64,000 bases of DNA from positions 4,400 to 68,399 of the forward strand of contig CAUVRF010000001.1 of the NCBI GenBank assembly GCA_963554245.1. Direction: 5' to 3'. Shown one piece after another: positions 246-4,081 of this stretch. Within the stretch, counting starts at the first letter, position 1. Each line of letters opens with the position of its first letter. Source of the DNA: an uncultured Streptococcus sp. (GTDB lineage Bacteria > Bacillota > Bacilli > Lactobacillales > Streptococcaceae). The notes under the pieces were generated by a model. The model saw only the letters and a list, made by a program, of their open reading frames with translations, made no database searches and was not told the DNA's origin. Both the position numbers and the translations under genes were made by a program.

Positions 246-395
246 ATGAAACTTAGAATCTTTGCGGAAGACAAACCAGCTGAAAAGGTTTTTGACTATC
301 AGCTAGAGCTGGCAGATGAAACAATTATCCTATCGACAGTGCTTCTGTCGGGTGCCATTGCTTTAGCAGGATTGTTTTCTGCTTTAAAAGATTAA
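246..395 (+). CDS. Small hypothetical membrane protein, 49 aa (below the ORF-track cutoff)
   Basis: GGAGAA RBS precedes ATG246. Translation MKLRIFAEDKPAEKVFDYQLELADETIILSTVLLSGAIALAGLFSALKD has one C-terminal hydrophobic helix. Confidence 0.65.
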   Translation: MKLRIFAEDKPAEKVFDYQLELADETIILSTVLLSGAIALAGLFSALKD

Positions 396-439
396 ACCGA
401 GAAATTCTGTTTTCAGGTGTTTTCGTTAGAACTGGAATG

Positions 440-448
440 TGTTATAAT
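440..448 (+). promoter_or_regulatory. Extended -10 promoter for the AAA ATPase cassette
   Basis: TGTTATAAT (TGnTATAAT) about 80 nt upstream of GTG530. An AAAGGAG RBS precedes the start. Confidence 0.65.
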
Positions 449-529
449 TTTGTTGTGTGGAGTAGATGGAGGTGAGTTGGAAAATCAATTCATTTTCATG
501 AATAGTGAGACGAAGAAAAGGAGAAGAGA

Positions 530-3292
530 GTGGCGAGATATTTAGTAGGTCCCTATAACAATAGTTGGAACTTTATGGATGCAGTTGAAAAAGCTCAAAA
601 CGGGGACACGATTGAATTTGAGGATGGGTATGCCTTTCAATGGCCAACAGATAGAGTCATTGTGATTAAAAAGAACCTTCATTTTGTGGGGCATGTAGTT
701 CCAAATCCAAATGGTAATGGGCGCTTATTTAATAATACGATTGAAGCGTCATTTCAGATTGCAGGCGGCGCTGAGGTTTCCTTTGAAAATCTATGGTTTA
801 AAATAACAGATAATTATGCGACCTTTTCAGTATTAGCTGGCTCTAAAATTTCCTGCAATCAGATTTATTTCGAAACAACTATCTCAGAAAATAAAAAATG
901 CATGATTTATGCAGAAGCAAAATCAAAAGTGATATTAAATGATGTAGGAATGTCTACCCCTGAGAAACACAATAGTATGATCAAAATAGACAGTTCAGAA
1001 TTGTCTATTAGTGATGCAACGATTTTATCTCGTATCTATGCGGTGGGTGGTTCTAAGATATCTTTAGACAATGTTTATCTTCAAAAATATGATCATAATG
1101 CGATCAATGTCAGAAATTCAGAGGTTACCTTAAAGAATTGTACAGTCAAAGGTGGTAATCTGGAGAAAGGATACCCAATAATCTGGCTAAAAAACGTTAT
1201 CTGGCAGTCGGAAAATTCCGTATTGGAGATGCCAGGATTTACCGCAGTAAACTTGACAAAAAACGTTCGTTTTGGTACAGTATCAGATAGAATTTCAGCC
1301 TTGAGTTCGTTTGAGAGTACAGTTCTAGCTCATGATATGACAATCACTGAATTTTTAGGAATTGATAAAGAATCTTTTGCTTCCTTAAAAGGAGTAACAA
1401 ATTTTCTTACAGAGAGTCAGAAAAAGATTCCATTTGGTGCTTTTACAAATAGTGTAGTGCTCGCAGATCAGATGATTTTTCACAAACTATTTGCTCCTAA
1501 TCTTCGTATCAAGGGTTCATCTTTTGTGAAAACAAATGCTCTTTCATATGCGCAAGGAGATGCTCGGGATCTTAAAATTGAATTAGAGGATGGCTCAGAC
1601 TATATTGTTGGGAAAGAATCTGCTCAAGGTGGTAGCACAGCTAATTCTGCAACGGGTGAAGTCGGAGTTGAAAAACGTGATGCTCTTGAGGAATTGAACA
1701 ATCTAGTTGGTCTTGAGAAGGTCAAACATGAGATCAAGAAGATGATCAATATGGTAGAGTTCAATAAAAAACGGATTGCTAGTGGCAAGACTCCTGAAAA
1801 GCAAACCTTACACGCTGCCTTTATGGGAAATCCTGGTACAGGAAAGACCACTGTAGCTCGTCTTTTGGGGGAAGCTCTGTATGAAGCAGGGGTTCTTTCT
1901 GGTGAAGAGTTCCGATTTGTCGAAGCAACCGAATCTGACTTGATCTCTTCTAGTGTCGGTGGTACAGCCGAGCAAACGCAACACCTACTTGAAAAAGCAC
2001 GTGGAGGAATCCTCTTTATTGACGAAGCTTACAGCTTGGATAAGAAAGGTAGCAGCGTCAACTTCGGAATTGAGGCTGTTAATACCATCCTCAAATTTAT
2101 GGAGGATAATCGTGATGATATCATGATTATTTTTGCGGGCTATACCAAAGAGATGGAAGAATTCTTCAAGACCAATCCTGGATTACGTTCGCGTGTACCA
2201 AACAACTTTATCTTTGAAGATTACACAGGGGATGAGATTGTTCAACTGGGTGAAATGATCTTGAAAAAAGGAGACTACAAGCTTGAAGACCGTGATTACT
2301 ATGCTCGTCATGTCAAACGTGCTTATGATGGTTCGCTAGATAAGAGTAATGGTCGCTGGATCCGTAACCTGGATGAGCAATTGACCAAGACCTTGGCGGA
2401 TCGTGTTGTGGCCCAAGGATCTGATGATATCGAGACAATCCTTAATATCGATATTGATGCTGTCCTCAATCAAGGCAAGTACCAGGAAGGTGCAGATAAG
2501 GAAGAAGACGGTATGGCAGCCCTCAACCGCTTGATTGGTATTCCAAAAGTCAAAGAGCAAGTAGAACAATTTGTAGCCATGGCAGAGTTTAACCAAAAAC
2601 GGGCTGAACAAGGGGGTGTTGTAGCAGATACGACCTTGCACTCACTCTTTCTTGGAAACCCTGGTACAGGGAAGACAACCGTTGCTCGGATTTTAGGAAA
2701 TATTCTTTTCCAAAAGGGAGTGATCAAGCAGAAGAAATTTATTGAAGTTTCACGGAGCAATCTGGTTGGAGGTTACCAAGGTCATACAGCTTTGAAGACG
2801 CGCGAAGTCTTAGAAAGTGCCCTTGGTGGTGTCCTCTTTATCGATGAAGCTTATGCTCTTTATAAGGATTCAAACGATAGTTTTGGGAAGGAAGCTTTAG
2901 ATGAAATCCTCAAATTTATGGAGGATCATCGTCGTGATATCGTGATTATCTTTGCTGGATATACCAAGGAAATGTATGAGTTTCTACAAGTCAATTCAGG
3001 ATTGCAAAGTCGGATTCCGACCACTTTCGATTTTGAAGATTATACACCTGATGAGATTGTTGAGATTGGACTTTTAGGACTTCATAAACAAGGTTATCAG
3101 GTCAATAAAGCTCTTTACGCGGATGTTGTGAAATTAAGTTATACACGTTCTAATGACAATAGCAATGGTCGCTGGGTTCGGAACTTTAACGAAAAACTTT
3201 TGCGTCAAGTTTCTACACGTGTAGCACGGGACGGAAGTAGCGATTACAACTCTATTTTGGATCAAGATTTAGAAGTATTAAGGGAGAATTGA
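530..3292 (+). CDS. Tandem AAA+ ATPase (two CbbX/SpoVK/EccA-like modules) with a predicted N-terminal right-handed beta-helix domain
   Basis: Two GNPGTGKT Walker A motifs (1826, 2654), two LFIDEAY Walker B motifs, AGY, PGLRSR/SGLQSR and SNGRW(I/V)RN. The N-terminus DAVEKAQNGDTIEFEDGY is a typical beta-helix capping motif, followed by I/V/N/S-rich strands. Confidence 0.9.
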   Translation: MARYLVGPYNNSWNFMDAVEKAQNGDTIEFEDGYAFQWPTDRVIVIKKNLHFVGHVVPNPNGNGRLFNNTIEASFQIAGGAEVSFENLWFKITDNYATFSVLAGSKISCNQIYFETTISENKKCMIYAEAKSKVILNDVGMSTPEKHNSMIKIDSSELSISDATILSRIYAVGGSKISLDNVYLQKYDHNAINVRNSEVTLKNCTVKGGNLEKGYPIIWLKNVIWQSENSVLEMPGFTAVNLTKNVRFGTVSDRISALSSFESTVLAHDMTITEFLGIDKESFASLKGVTNFLTESQKKIPFGAFTNSVVLADQMIFHKLFAPNLRIKGSSFVKTNALSYAQGDARDLKIELEDGSDYIVGKESAQGGSTANSATGEVGVEKRDALEELNNLVGLEKVKHEIKKMINMVEFNKKRIASGKTPEKQTLHAAFMGNPGTGKTTVARLLGEALYEAGVLSGEEFRFVEATESDLISSSVGGTAEQTQHLLEKARGGILFIDEAYSLDKKGSSVNFGIEAVNTILKFMEDNRDDIMIIFAGYTKEMEEFFKTNPGLRSRVPNNFIFEDYTGDEIVQLGEMILKKGDYKLEDRDYYARHVKRAYDGSLDKSNGRWIRNLDEQLTKTLADRVVAQGSDDIETILNIDIDAVLNQGKYQEGADKEEDGMAALNRLIGIPKVKEQVEQFVAMAEFNQKRAEQGGVVADTTLHSLFLGNPGTGKTTVARILGNILFQKGVIKQKKFIEVSRSNLVGGYQGHTALKTREVLESALGGVLFIDEAYALYKDSNDSFGKEALDEILKFMEDHRRDIVIIFAGYTKEMYEFLQVNSGLQSRIPTTFDFEDYTPDEIVEIGLLGLHKQGYQVNKALYADVVKLSYTRSNDNSNGRWVRNFNEKLLRQVSTRVARDGSSDYNSILDQDLEVLREN

Positions 3293-3293
3293 A

Positions 3294-3992
3294 ATGGCAG
3301 ATAAAAATGACTATGTAGCACCTCCGGGAGTCAGCAGTGGACAATCCGATTATGTAGCTCCACCAGGTCAGACAGTCCAACAAAATGACTATGTAACACC
3401 ACTGAGTGTTCAATCTTCACAGCAAAGTGATTATGTAACACCTCCTGGTGCACAGGGAACAAAACAATCAGATTATGTGCCTCCTCAACAAGGTCAAGCT
3501 AGTTCCCACCAAGAACAAGGCTACTTTGATACGCCGTCTGCTCCATGGACTATGTATCTGACAGGCTATCTCTTTATCATGTTAATGATTGTCTGGAACG
3601 GAGAAAATGGCTTGTTTATGAAATTGTTAGGAACGGCCTACACCCTTCTTTCTAACTACACCTTATCTTGGTATTCGGATTACAAACGATTTGAAAATGG
3701 ACCTTTTGCTTGGTTCTTTACCCGTTTTGGAAGTGCGAAGTTTGGCTATGCTTCCTCTGCATCCATGAACTACCAAAAAGTTCGTGTATCTCGTGGTGTA
3801 TTTGGGAACTATACAGGGACATCCAGTACGGATTGGGGCCAACATATTTTGACCGCAGTCATTGTTACTGTAGTGGCTGAACTATTGCGATTCTTTATCT
3901 GTATCTCAATCGCCTTTATTACACTCTTTACTCATAAAACCACTGTCGCAAAATATACGTATGCTTTGCAACAGTGGCTCAATCAACAGTAA
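3294..3992 (+). CDS. Hypothetical membrane protein with N-terminal DYVxP repeats
   Basis: Starts 1 nt after the AAA stop, with an AAGGGAG RBS inside the AAA 3' end. It has a Q/S/P/G-rich tail with 5 repeats, then 3-4 hydrophobic segments. Confidence 0.85.
   Translation: MADKNDYVAPPGVSSGQSDYVAPPGQTVQQNDYVTPLSVQSSQQSDYVTPPGAQGTKQSDYVPPQQGQASSHQEQGYFDTPSAPWTMYLTGYLFIMLMIVWNGENGLFMKLLGTAYTLLSNYTLSWYSDYKRFENGPFAWFFTRFGSAKFGYASSASMNYQKVRVSRGVFGNYTGTSSTDWGQHILTAVIVTVVAELLRFFICISIAFITLFTHKTTVAKYTYALQQWLNQQ
3306..3485 (+). repeat. Five degenerate in-frame repeats (39-42 nt period) encoding [N/S]DYV[A/T/P]P
   Basis: Units start at 3306, 3345, 3384, 3426 and 3468 (aatgactatgta / tccgattatgta / aatgactatgta / agtgattatgta / tcagattatgtg). 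Confidence 0.9.
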
Positions 3993-4000
3993 GTGAATCA

Positions 4001-4027
4001 GGATTCTGCAGGAGCGGAATCCTTTTT
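4001..4027 (+). terminator. Rho-independent terminator closing the two-gene cassette
   Basis: GGATTCTGC-agga-GCGGAATCC followed by TTTTT. Confidence 0.8.
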
Positions 4028-4081
4028 GCATGGATTTATGGTATACTAGGAGAAGATTATTCACTTATAAAGGAGAAAGCA

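Follow-up and report, generated by a model that had tools for sequence, protein, structure and literature searches.

A beta-helix tandem AAA+ ATPase and a YVxP-tagged membrane protein: a candidate cell-envelope remodelling pair of streptococci and related Bacillota

Results

A coupled gene pair between polC and pepS

The DNA analysed here is a stretch of 64,000 nucleotides (nt) from an uncultured Streptococcus sp. (assembly GCA_963554245.1, contig CAUVRF010000001.1, positions 4,400 to 68,399), hereafter the window, near the start of which lie two adjacent genes that an earlier note, made from the sequence alone, had singled out as a candidate undescribed ATPase-membrane protein system. Gene 1 (530-3292, forward strand) is an open reading frame (ORF) of 920 amino acids (aa) with a GTG start, gene 2 (3294-3992, forward strand) is an ORF of 232 aa, and the gap between them is 1 nt. 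The pair is flanked on one side by the 3' end of a gene that we take to be polC, and on the other by pepS, which matches the Peptidase_M29 profile. The interpretation that we favour, and to which we give slightly less than an even chance, is that the pair forms a membrane-docked, dedicated protein remodeller of the cell envelope.

Gene 1 encodes a beta-helix and two AAA+ modules

The first 362 residues of gene 1 (530..1615, forward strand) form an N-domain that is predicted to be a right-handed beta-helix. Pfam returned nothing for the window's own N-domain (best E 0.87), and the assignment comes by way of a 75%-identical relative, whose AlphaFold2 (AF2) model is all-beta over residues 1-364 at a predicted local distance difference test score (pLDDT) of ~90. 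Compared with right-handed beta-helices, the relative's N-domain model (range 3-365) matches Vag8 with Z 31.3 and a root-mean-square deviation of 2.7 over 322 aligned residues, so that the right-handed parallel beta-helix fold is matched over most of the domain in this relative, and the Pfam Beta_helix family matches 5 of 12 homologous N-domains, one of them above cut-off. The beta-helix of ~360 aa claimed in the earlier note is thereby borne out.

A flexible linker rich in Gly, Ser and Ala (1616..1684, forward strand), recognised from sequence and from pLDDT values below 50 in the relative, connects the N-domain to two AAA+ modules on the same strand, D1 (1685..2479; Walker A at aa 433-440) and D2 (2507..3292; Walker A at aa 709-716). 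Walker A, Walker B, GY sensor-1, Arg finger and sensor-2 are all present in both, in agreement with the earlier claim of two complete modules. The GY signature of sensor-1, a clade feature according to the accessible text of PMC11513918, is represented by G537-Y538 and G810-Y811 (invariant in 10/10 aligned sequences). N549 and N822, each six residues before the invariant R555 and R828, are likewise invariant, as are R609 and R881, the second Arg finger of sensor-2, which lie within N[GA]RW. The best families for each module are SpoVK, EccA and CbbX, each scoring well below the family cut-off; the closest profile and structure matches of gene 1 all fall within this clade, and the matches listed by Foldseek against PDB and viral libraries were filled by AAA proteins. 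An identical ATPase (100%) occurs in a named Streptococcus oralis genome (locus L001). By its sequence, gene 1 is thus assigned as a putative dedicated protein-remodelling ATPase of the SpoVK/EccA/CbbX clade and, by analogy with that clade, is probably hexameric with an N-D1-D2 layout.

Pore loop 1 of D1 mostly lacks an aromatic residue, and the D2 pore-loop residue Tyr749 is invariant in 24/24 aligned sequences. Because D2 keeps the aromatic pore loop and single-AAA relatives resemble D2, this module is likely to be the gripping ring. CbbX, which grips the terminal tail of its client with a Tyr pore loop, provides a model for such a role.

Gene 2 encodes a tagged membrane protein

Gene 2 begins with a disordered N-terminal tail (3294..3518, forward strand; from motif reading and the AF2 model) in which five DYVxP repeats, at residues 6, 19, 32, 46 and 60, are spaced 13-14 residues apart. 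The membrane body that follows (3519..3992, forward strand) is modelled by AF2, behind a disordered tail of 75 residues, as a hairpin of two helices, a basic loop with a beta-hairpin (161-167/173-179) and a single long hydrophobic helix. Of the features ascribed to gene 2 in the earlier note, the five DYVxP motifs, the beta-hairpin and the long C-terminal helix hold, but the hydrophobicity of the first two helices is no more than moderate (means over 19 residues reach 1.4). The basic loop and the C-terminus fit an N-in topology, and the tail is accordingly predicted to face inward, into the cytoplasm.

No family was matched by gene 2 in Pfam, NCBIfam or PADLOC, and Pfam found none shared over 44 aligned relatives. 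Fold searches gave no clear result (Foldseek best E 0.22; VIA best Z 5.7, to helical bundles), and an Atlas search returned only unnamed clusters, below 0.9. Judged by these comparisons, gene 2 is a predicted membrane-protein family of no known kind.

Gene 2 implies an upstream ATPase

Searched alone, gene 2 was found at 22 loci, all with the ATPase upstream, in Streptococcus, Granulicatella, Enterococcus camelliae, Anaerococcus, Ezakiella and other Tissierellia/Clostridia. Three of these are streptococcal pair loci already found by the ATPase search; at 18 of the other 19 the ATPase ORF ends -1 to 2 nt upstream (in one case split in two), and at the last the upstream ATPase is truncated. This coupling of -1 to 2 nt is kept at a partner identity of 30-45% across Bacilli and Tissierellia, while the chromosomal sites of the pair differ from genus to genus.

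In the opposite direction the association is loose. Gene 2 is present at 3 of 59 close ATPase loci, and nearly all the others carry a solo form of 950 aa ending DDQGYV[LI]P, downstream of which no gene 2 remnant was found. Among 146 distinct ATPases, a heavily redundant set whose counts are dominated by near-copies, 30 are accompanied by the gene 2 family and 6 by another tagged partner, 73 are tailed in cis, 28 have neither, and 9 are incomplete or lack the beta-helix. The 300 other Streptococcus genomes sampled include 18 with the solo form and none with tailed gene 2; one full-length match came from 400 genomes sampled across the phylum, and 45 of 400 sampled across the order contained a match, with mixed architectures. 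Two genomes (G935 and G995; loci L301 and L302) have a second beta-helix tandem ATPase without partner or tag, in addition to a 915-aa copy like the paired one of Granulicatella. The coupling is one-way: gene 2 implies an upstream ATPase, and most ATPase relatives lack gene 2. The two-gene system of the earlier note therefore stands as seen from gene 2 and is not strict as seen from the ATPase.

A YVxP tag occurs in trans and in cis

The repeat consensus of gene 2 is [DE]YVxPP, and each of the 33 tailed rows among the 44 aligned has between 2 and 9 copies. The same motif starts a 160-aa partner family found beside mostly single-AAA beta-helix relatives, in which Y, V and P are invariant (7/7). 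The body of this family does not align with that of gene 2 (hhalign probability 1% against a tail-less profile); the tail alone aligns (hhalign 96%). Two further tagged partner bodies (L122 and L172) gave no phmmer match to gene 2, and remote homology among the tagged partners is possible, since all have a similar hydrophobic layout. As far as sequence comparison detects, the tag starts at least two partner families without body homology.

Two partner-less lineages carry the tag in cis, on the C-terminus of the ATPase itself: the streptococcal solo form and a lineage from metagenome contigs ending ADE[NK]GYAVPP. They fall into separate, starred clades of a D2 tree (24 rows, reduced from 131 at 95% identity plus 4 outgroups), and an approximately unbiased test rejects a single clade (p 5e-65). 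Among the 48 different tail DNAs from streptococci, the nine codons at the end vary synonymously at 7 positions and differ in residue only 5 times in total, and the residues of the linker (~10-20) before the motif vary freely, a pattern that shows the signature of purifying selection on the streptococcal cis tail.

Conversely, gene 2 relatives that lack the tail occur in 4 of the 300 Streptococcus genomes, without an adjacent ATPase, and the genus-wide ATPase search found no match in those four genomes. Pattern searches of genome contigs returned no further tail-less relatives, so that their context is known from these four genomes. One of them has a DUF6287 lipoprotein gene two genes further on.

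A fresh set of 20 loci from the order-wide sample, 14 of them with the N-domain, yielded the tag in 3/14 with the pattern set beforehand and in 5/14 with a pattern relaxed after looking, as YVxP within the first 40 residues of the downstream gene. These five are all the loci with a same-strand gene no more than 80 nt downstream; by way of background, YVxP lies within the first 40 residues of 1 in 1419 ORFs of the window's own genome. Three of the nine tag-less fresh loci have instead an upstream membrane gene with repeated PxFG-like motifs in its N-terminal tail; these PxFG-repeat proteins (L303:5250-5798, L304:7558-8115 and L305:7935-8528) precede divergent tandem ATPases, and their profile aligns with the 160-aa family (84%, 107 columns). 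The PxFG-like repeat is possibly a second docking code. Taken together, these sequence patterns suggest that the YVxP tag tracks the ATPase, though the family does not require it.

The same patterns bear on whether the two genes belong together at all. Gene 2 could instead be a passenger of envelope-gene clusters, its repeats being low-complexity filler unlinked to the ATPase, as the many ATPases without partner and tag and the tail-less gene 2 relatives that exist alone would allow. We regard such a loose association as improbable, given that the tight coupling is retained between divergent partners in Bacilli and Tissierellia, that the motif consensus is fixed, and that change in the cis tail is biased to synonymous sites.

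The pair occupies a variable slot

Comparison with relatives places the pair within an inserted cassette of ~3.69 kb (392..4081, forward strand), delimited by RNA joints and by empty sites in relatives. Cassette-less strains have a spacer of 21-28 nt in its place, and their RNA reads join position 391 to 4081/4082 in three of the four runs aligned (out of 24, all four from strains without the cassette), from which the insert size follows. To the left lies a 49-codon ORF with a hydrophobic C-terminal half (246..395, forward strand), which RNA cover and relatives assign to the host slot as the left flank of the insert. It lies between polC and the cassette promoter, is conserved in most close streptococci (present at 52/58 ATPase loci and in 27/29 close pair-less relatives), and has no match in Pfam. 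In cassette-less strains it is transcribed through to pepS.

Within the insert, a putative extended -10 promoter-like site (TRTGnTATAAT; TGTGTTATAAT; 438..448, forward strand) was found by pattern match; 7 matches to the pattern lie in the window, where 0.23 would be expected, and a sigma-70 scan that required a -35 box did not list the site. A ribosome-binding site, AAGGAG (518..523, forward strand), read by eye, stands 6 nt before the GTG start. Downstream of gene 2, an intrinsic-terminator-like hairpin (4000..4031, forward strand), of which a terminator scan lists the 10-bp stem and T-run at 4000-4023, recurs with at most 2 mismatches at 20/58 ATPase loci, including 3' of solo ATPases, and as an exact copy in none of the 29 close pair-less relatives. 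A second extended -10-like site (TATGgTATACT; 4037..4047, forward strand), also read by eye, is a putative restart for pepS transcription. The insert thus probably carries its own promoter-like site and terminator and a new pepS promoter. The self-contained unit described in the earlier note is recovered in its extended -10 site, 1-nt gap and terminator, with the 49-codon ORF as an addition between polC and the promoter. The stretch at 3995-4070 (terminator and pepS upstream region) matches DNA of the S. parasanguinis group and not of the closest relatives, a hint of recombination with that group as the source of the cassette. In this group (L242-L245 in G262 and G082, and the upstream parts of L003-L056), a type VIIb secretion system (T7SSb) with variable effector cassettes lies between proS and polC, so that there are variable slots on both sides of polC.

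Slot contents were compared in 29 other streptococci, the closest among 66 that matched in a sample of 80. The pair lies within 1.5 kb of pepS in none of these, and in 12 of them polC, the small ORF and pepS are directly adjacent; the cargo in others is GmrSD (8/29) or RelB/YafQ (6/29), with both in 2. The variable slot proposed in the earlier note, and the RelBE-type pair it placed there, are both borne out in relatives.

Neighbouring genes point to the envelope more than to defence

The shared slot bears on one alternative, in which the pair is an anti-phage or abortive-infection module whose beta-helix senses a phage product and whose ATPase triggers or releases a toxic membrane effector. 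An ATPase with a membrane effector is a known defence layout. Besides the GmrSD and RelB/YafQ cargo, the slot of one genome holds another SpoVK-type ATPase with GmrSD and RelB/YafQ-like genes, and the patchy spread of the pair, with tailed gene 2 missing from the genus sample, would suit a defence function. Against it, no single system's models in PADLOC-DB 2.0.0 are matched by both components; gene 2 has no match there and gene 1 has generic AAA matches only (best E 3e-15). In a survey of 20 representative loci, covering neighbours of up to 800 aa other than gene 2 relatives, just two of the 102 (PDC-S27 and AbiQ) could plausibly act in defence, and four other matches look on inspection like ABC ATPases and a MutY-like gene. 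Neighbours away from this slot are mostly housekeeping or surface-protein genes; among the rows listed, the 13 Granulicatella loci share one housekeeping context. Moreover, no match was found in plasmids (searched with gene 2) or phages (searched with the N-domain), and tail-less gene 2 relatives persist without an adjacent ATPase. A defence role is weakly supported, and we consider it unlikely.

Several relatives lie in operons with envelope proteins: SEC10/PgrA-domain, choline-binding, G5 and zinc-ribbon/YARHG proteins and DUF6287 lipoproteins. SEC10/PgrA domains score above cut-off in 4 of 8 large surface proteins scanned. On the best reading of these sequences, the pair would be an accessory module of the cell envelope, carried as a cassette from one chromosomal slot to another.

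A fixed link to SEC10/PgrA was considered and rejected; the domain is above cut-off in 2 of 5 pair-bearing genomes and, in the window's own genome, lies on another contig. Several further arrangements were observed, for which the neighbour names TelA, XpaC, WYL, some Rgg and glnA are presumptive. Operons joining SEC10/PgrA surface proteins, choline-binding proteins, lipoproteins and a beta-helix ATPase occur at L119-L121, L123, L125, L126 and L208-L210, several beside an Rgg-like regulator; a literature search on such SEC10/PgrA-beta-helix ATPase operons found no paper. A G5/LPXTG surface protein (L172:63-2663) contains a stretch weakly resembling the Pfam ATLF-like metalloprotease (E 4e-5, below cut-off). 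A common streptococcal three-gene unit (L129, L131, L132, L134-L136) comprises a TelA-like protein of 560 aa, an XpaC-like protein of 240 aa and a SpoVK-clade ATPase of 360-375 aa, and a SpoVK-clade ATPase of 452-464 aa is the last gene of another coupled three-gene unit (L127, L128 and L130) with unknown proteins of 343-355 aa and 209-220 aa. A SpoVK-clade ATPase of 620-636 aa followed by WYL-like regulator and GmrSD-like genes (L133, L137:8545-15529 and L138) occupies, in G285, the same polC-pepS slot; this ATPase/GmrSD unit is a better defence candidate than the pair studied here.

Association with type VII secretion is not supported

As the earlier note had stated, the window contains no EssC or WXG100 gene. 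The genome has two T7SSb loci, with EssC and WXG100 on contigs other than the window's, in which most gene names are presumptive: a complete one (G000:C30:2800-18421) with Lap-like genes, an LXG-like effector and DUF443- and DUF4176-like genes, and a second (G000:C26:16405-19791 and G000:C45:5987-12451). Another alternative casts the pair as an accessory chaperone of type VIIb secretion, akin to EccA but encoded apart from the machinery. Among solved structures, EccA matches the sequence best (9lur, E 9e-48), PMC11513918 mentions an N-domain of beta-helix type for EccA, and EssC is present in all 18 solo-form genomes of the 300-genome sample, on the same contig across polC in 15, as compared with 111/300 overall. 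These 18 genomes are close kin, however, and the EccA model remains below its cut-off. EssC occurs in 2 of 15 other pair-bearing genomes (several of them drafts or metagenome-assembled genomes), in none of 12 genomes with other beta-helix classes, and not in the S. oralis genome with the identical ATPase. Homologues of the pair, which the earlier note had envisaged might map to a type VII secretion system (T7SS) accessory locus, do not do so; that assignment is not supported, and we hold this explanation to be very improbable.

Discussion

A proposed membrane-docked remodeller

In the explanation that we favour, that of an envelope remodeller docked at the membrane, the [DEG]YVxP(P) motif would be a short ligand for this ATPase family. 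Several copies could allow one membrane protein to hold several ring subunits at the membrane, where the ATPase would remodel, activate or extract either gene 2 itself or a neighbouring envelope protein; in the two partner-less lineages, this site would be occupied in cis by the motif at the C-terminus of the ATPase itself. Of the earlier note's proposal of a dedicated ATPase-membrane protein pair, it is the membrane-tethered remodeller that fits best, and its other half, defence, is tied to the other cargo of the slot alone. A broader and more tentative proposal, which we consider possible but rather doubtful, is that YVxP(P) serves a beta-helix AAA+ family of bacteria as a short linear docking code not described before, by which unrelated membrane proteins may become adaptors or clients on gaining tandem copies and the motor may be tagged in cis where no partner exists; on a divergent branch the repeat would be a different one, PxFG, borne by a membrane partner encoded upstream.

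Several observations weigh against a role for the tag in docking and against an envelope module. Nine of the 14 fresh loci have neither tag nor tagged partner, and the count of five comes from the relaxed pattern, the pre-set one giving only three. The 28 of 146 ATPases without tail or tagged partner include 3 that are broken or truncated, and several ATPase classes have a coupled downstream gene that lacks the tag. No ATPase columns separate tagged from untagged members (3 observed, 0.94 by chance, 61/500 shuffles as high). The origin of the cis tails says little, because read-through into a partner's first repeat could create one. The window's own pair has no surface-protein neighbours, the sequence sets are redundant and kin-related, and the RNA runs examined come from cassette-less strains, none from a cassette holder. 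The AF2 monomer of the solo ATPase, with its cis tail at pLDDT below 50, is uninformative for a site formed in the ring.

C-terminal docking tails are known on some AAA+ rings, such as HbYX on p97 and PAN, and that of Mpa. The motif might accordingly bind a third, conserved host protein and not the ATPase, with solo ATPases docking directly and gene 2 providing recruitment in the pairs. The cis tails, conserved behind a free linker of ~10-20 residues at the end of D2, would fit this, as would the lack of any ATPase residue that co-varies with tag presence. It explains less simply the up to 9 repeats, the position of the motif always beside the end of the ATPase, and the tail-less partners without an adjacent ATPase; nor does a third gene co-occur in the neighbourhoods read. 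We judge it a fairly remote prospect.

If the broader docking-code proposal is correct, host-associated Bacillota would possess a modular system of membrane remodelling, comparable to p97 or Vps4, whose targets would be surface-exclusion proteins or other proteins of the envelope, or which would serve in defence. Clients are known for only three kinds of this AAA+ clade (CbbX, EccA and SpoVK), and client choice is largely open; here a likely recognition element may be readable in sequence, as a mobile tag of five residues, carried by partner proteins or by the tail of the motor itself, that lends itself to peptide tests. The pair, which occurs in some bacteria of mouth, gut and skin, would in addition amount to an accessory module of the envelope in oral streptococci and commensals related to them.

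Comparison with known systems

The clade to which gene 1 is assigned was defined in PMC11513918 and the preprint 10.1101/2023.10.06.561273, whose accessible text describes its studied members as narrow-target chaperones without peptidase partners (PMC11513918) and a beta-helix N-domain in some EccA. The pair is not mentioned in the portions of these two sources available, though an operon or architecture figure may show a relative, and the accessible part of PMC11237479 does not mention SpoVK. A literature search, with most subscription papers outside its reach, found no description of the pair.

SpoVK of B. subtilis (TIGR02881; PMC11513918) is the NCBIfam family on which each module scores highest (228 and 250 bits), in both cases far below its cut-off of 423, which is exceeded only when the scores of the two modules are added over the whole protein. 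SpoVK itself, as far as the available text of PMC11513918 describes it, has a single module and a short N-domain, is confined to spore formers and acts on MurG, whereas gene 1 has a 360-aa beta-helix and its hosts are Streptococcus, Granulicatella and Anaerococcus. EccA/EccA1 of the T7SSa (TIGR03922; PDB 9lur) has a large N-terminal interaction domain, TPR or, in some EccA, beta-helix (PMC11513918, in part), but gene 1 reaches 399 bits as a whole and 186 and 226 per module against a cut-off of 467, has two AAA+ modules and shows no T7SS linkage or requirement.

CbbX, the red-type Rubisco activase (TIGR02880; PDB 3syk/3zuh), is the top Foldseek match (E 2e-16, 36% identity). Unlike gene 1, whose modules score 193 and 203 bits against its cut-off of 459, CbbX has no N-domain and one module, and its client is Rubisco. 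Streptococci have, to our knowledge, no Rubisco, for which no search was made here. IetAS and other ATPase-based defence systems match weakly, at the generic AAA level (IetA E 4e-15; 43 bits against a cut-off of 510), and no protease or known effector partner is present here.

The likeness to p97/Cdc48 and to Vps4-ESCRT-III, which extends to structural matches and the N-D1-D2 layout, is one of analogy only. Vps4 is recruited to membranes through short proline-rich tail motifs (MIT-MIM). Gene 1 differs from these proteins in clade and N-domain, and the likeness in partner and motif is offered as analogy. What is new here, as read from sequence, is an undescribed partner family and a putative docking motif on a known ATPase clade.

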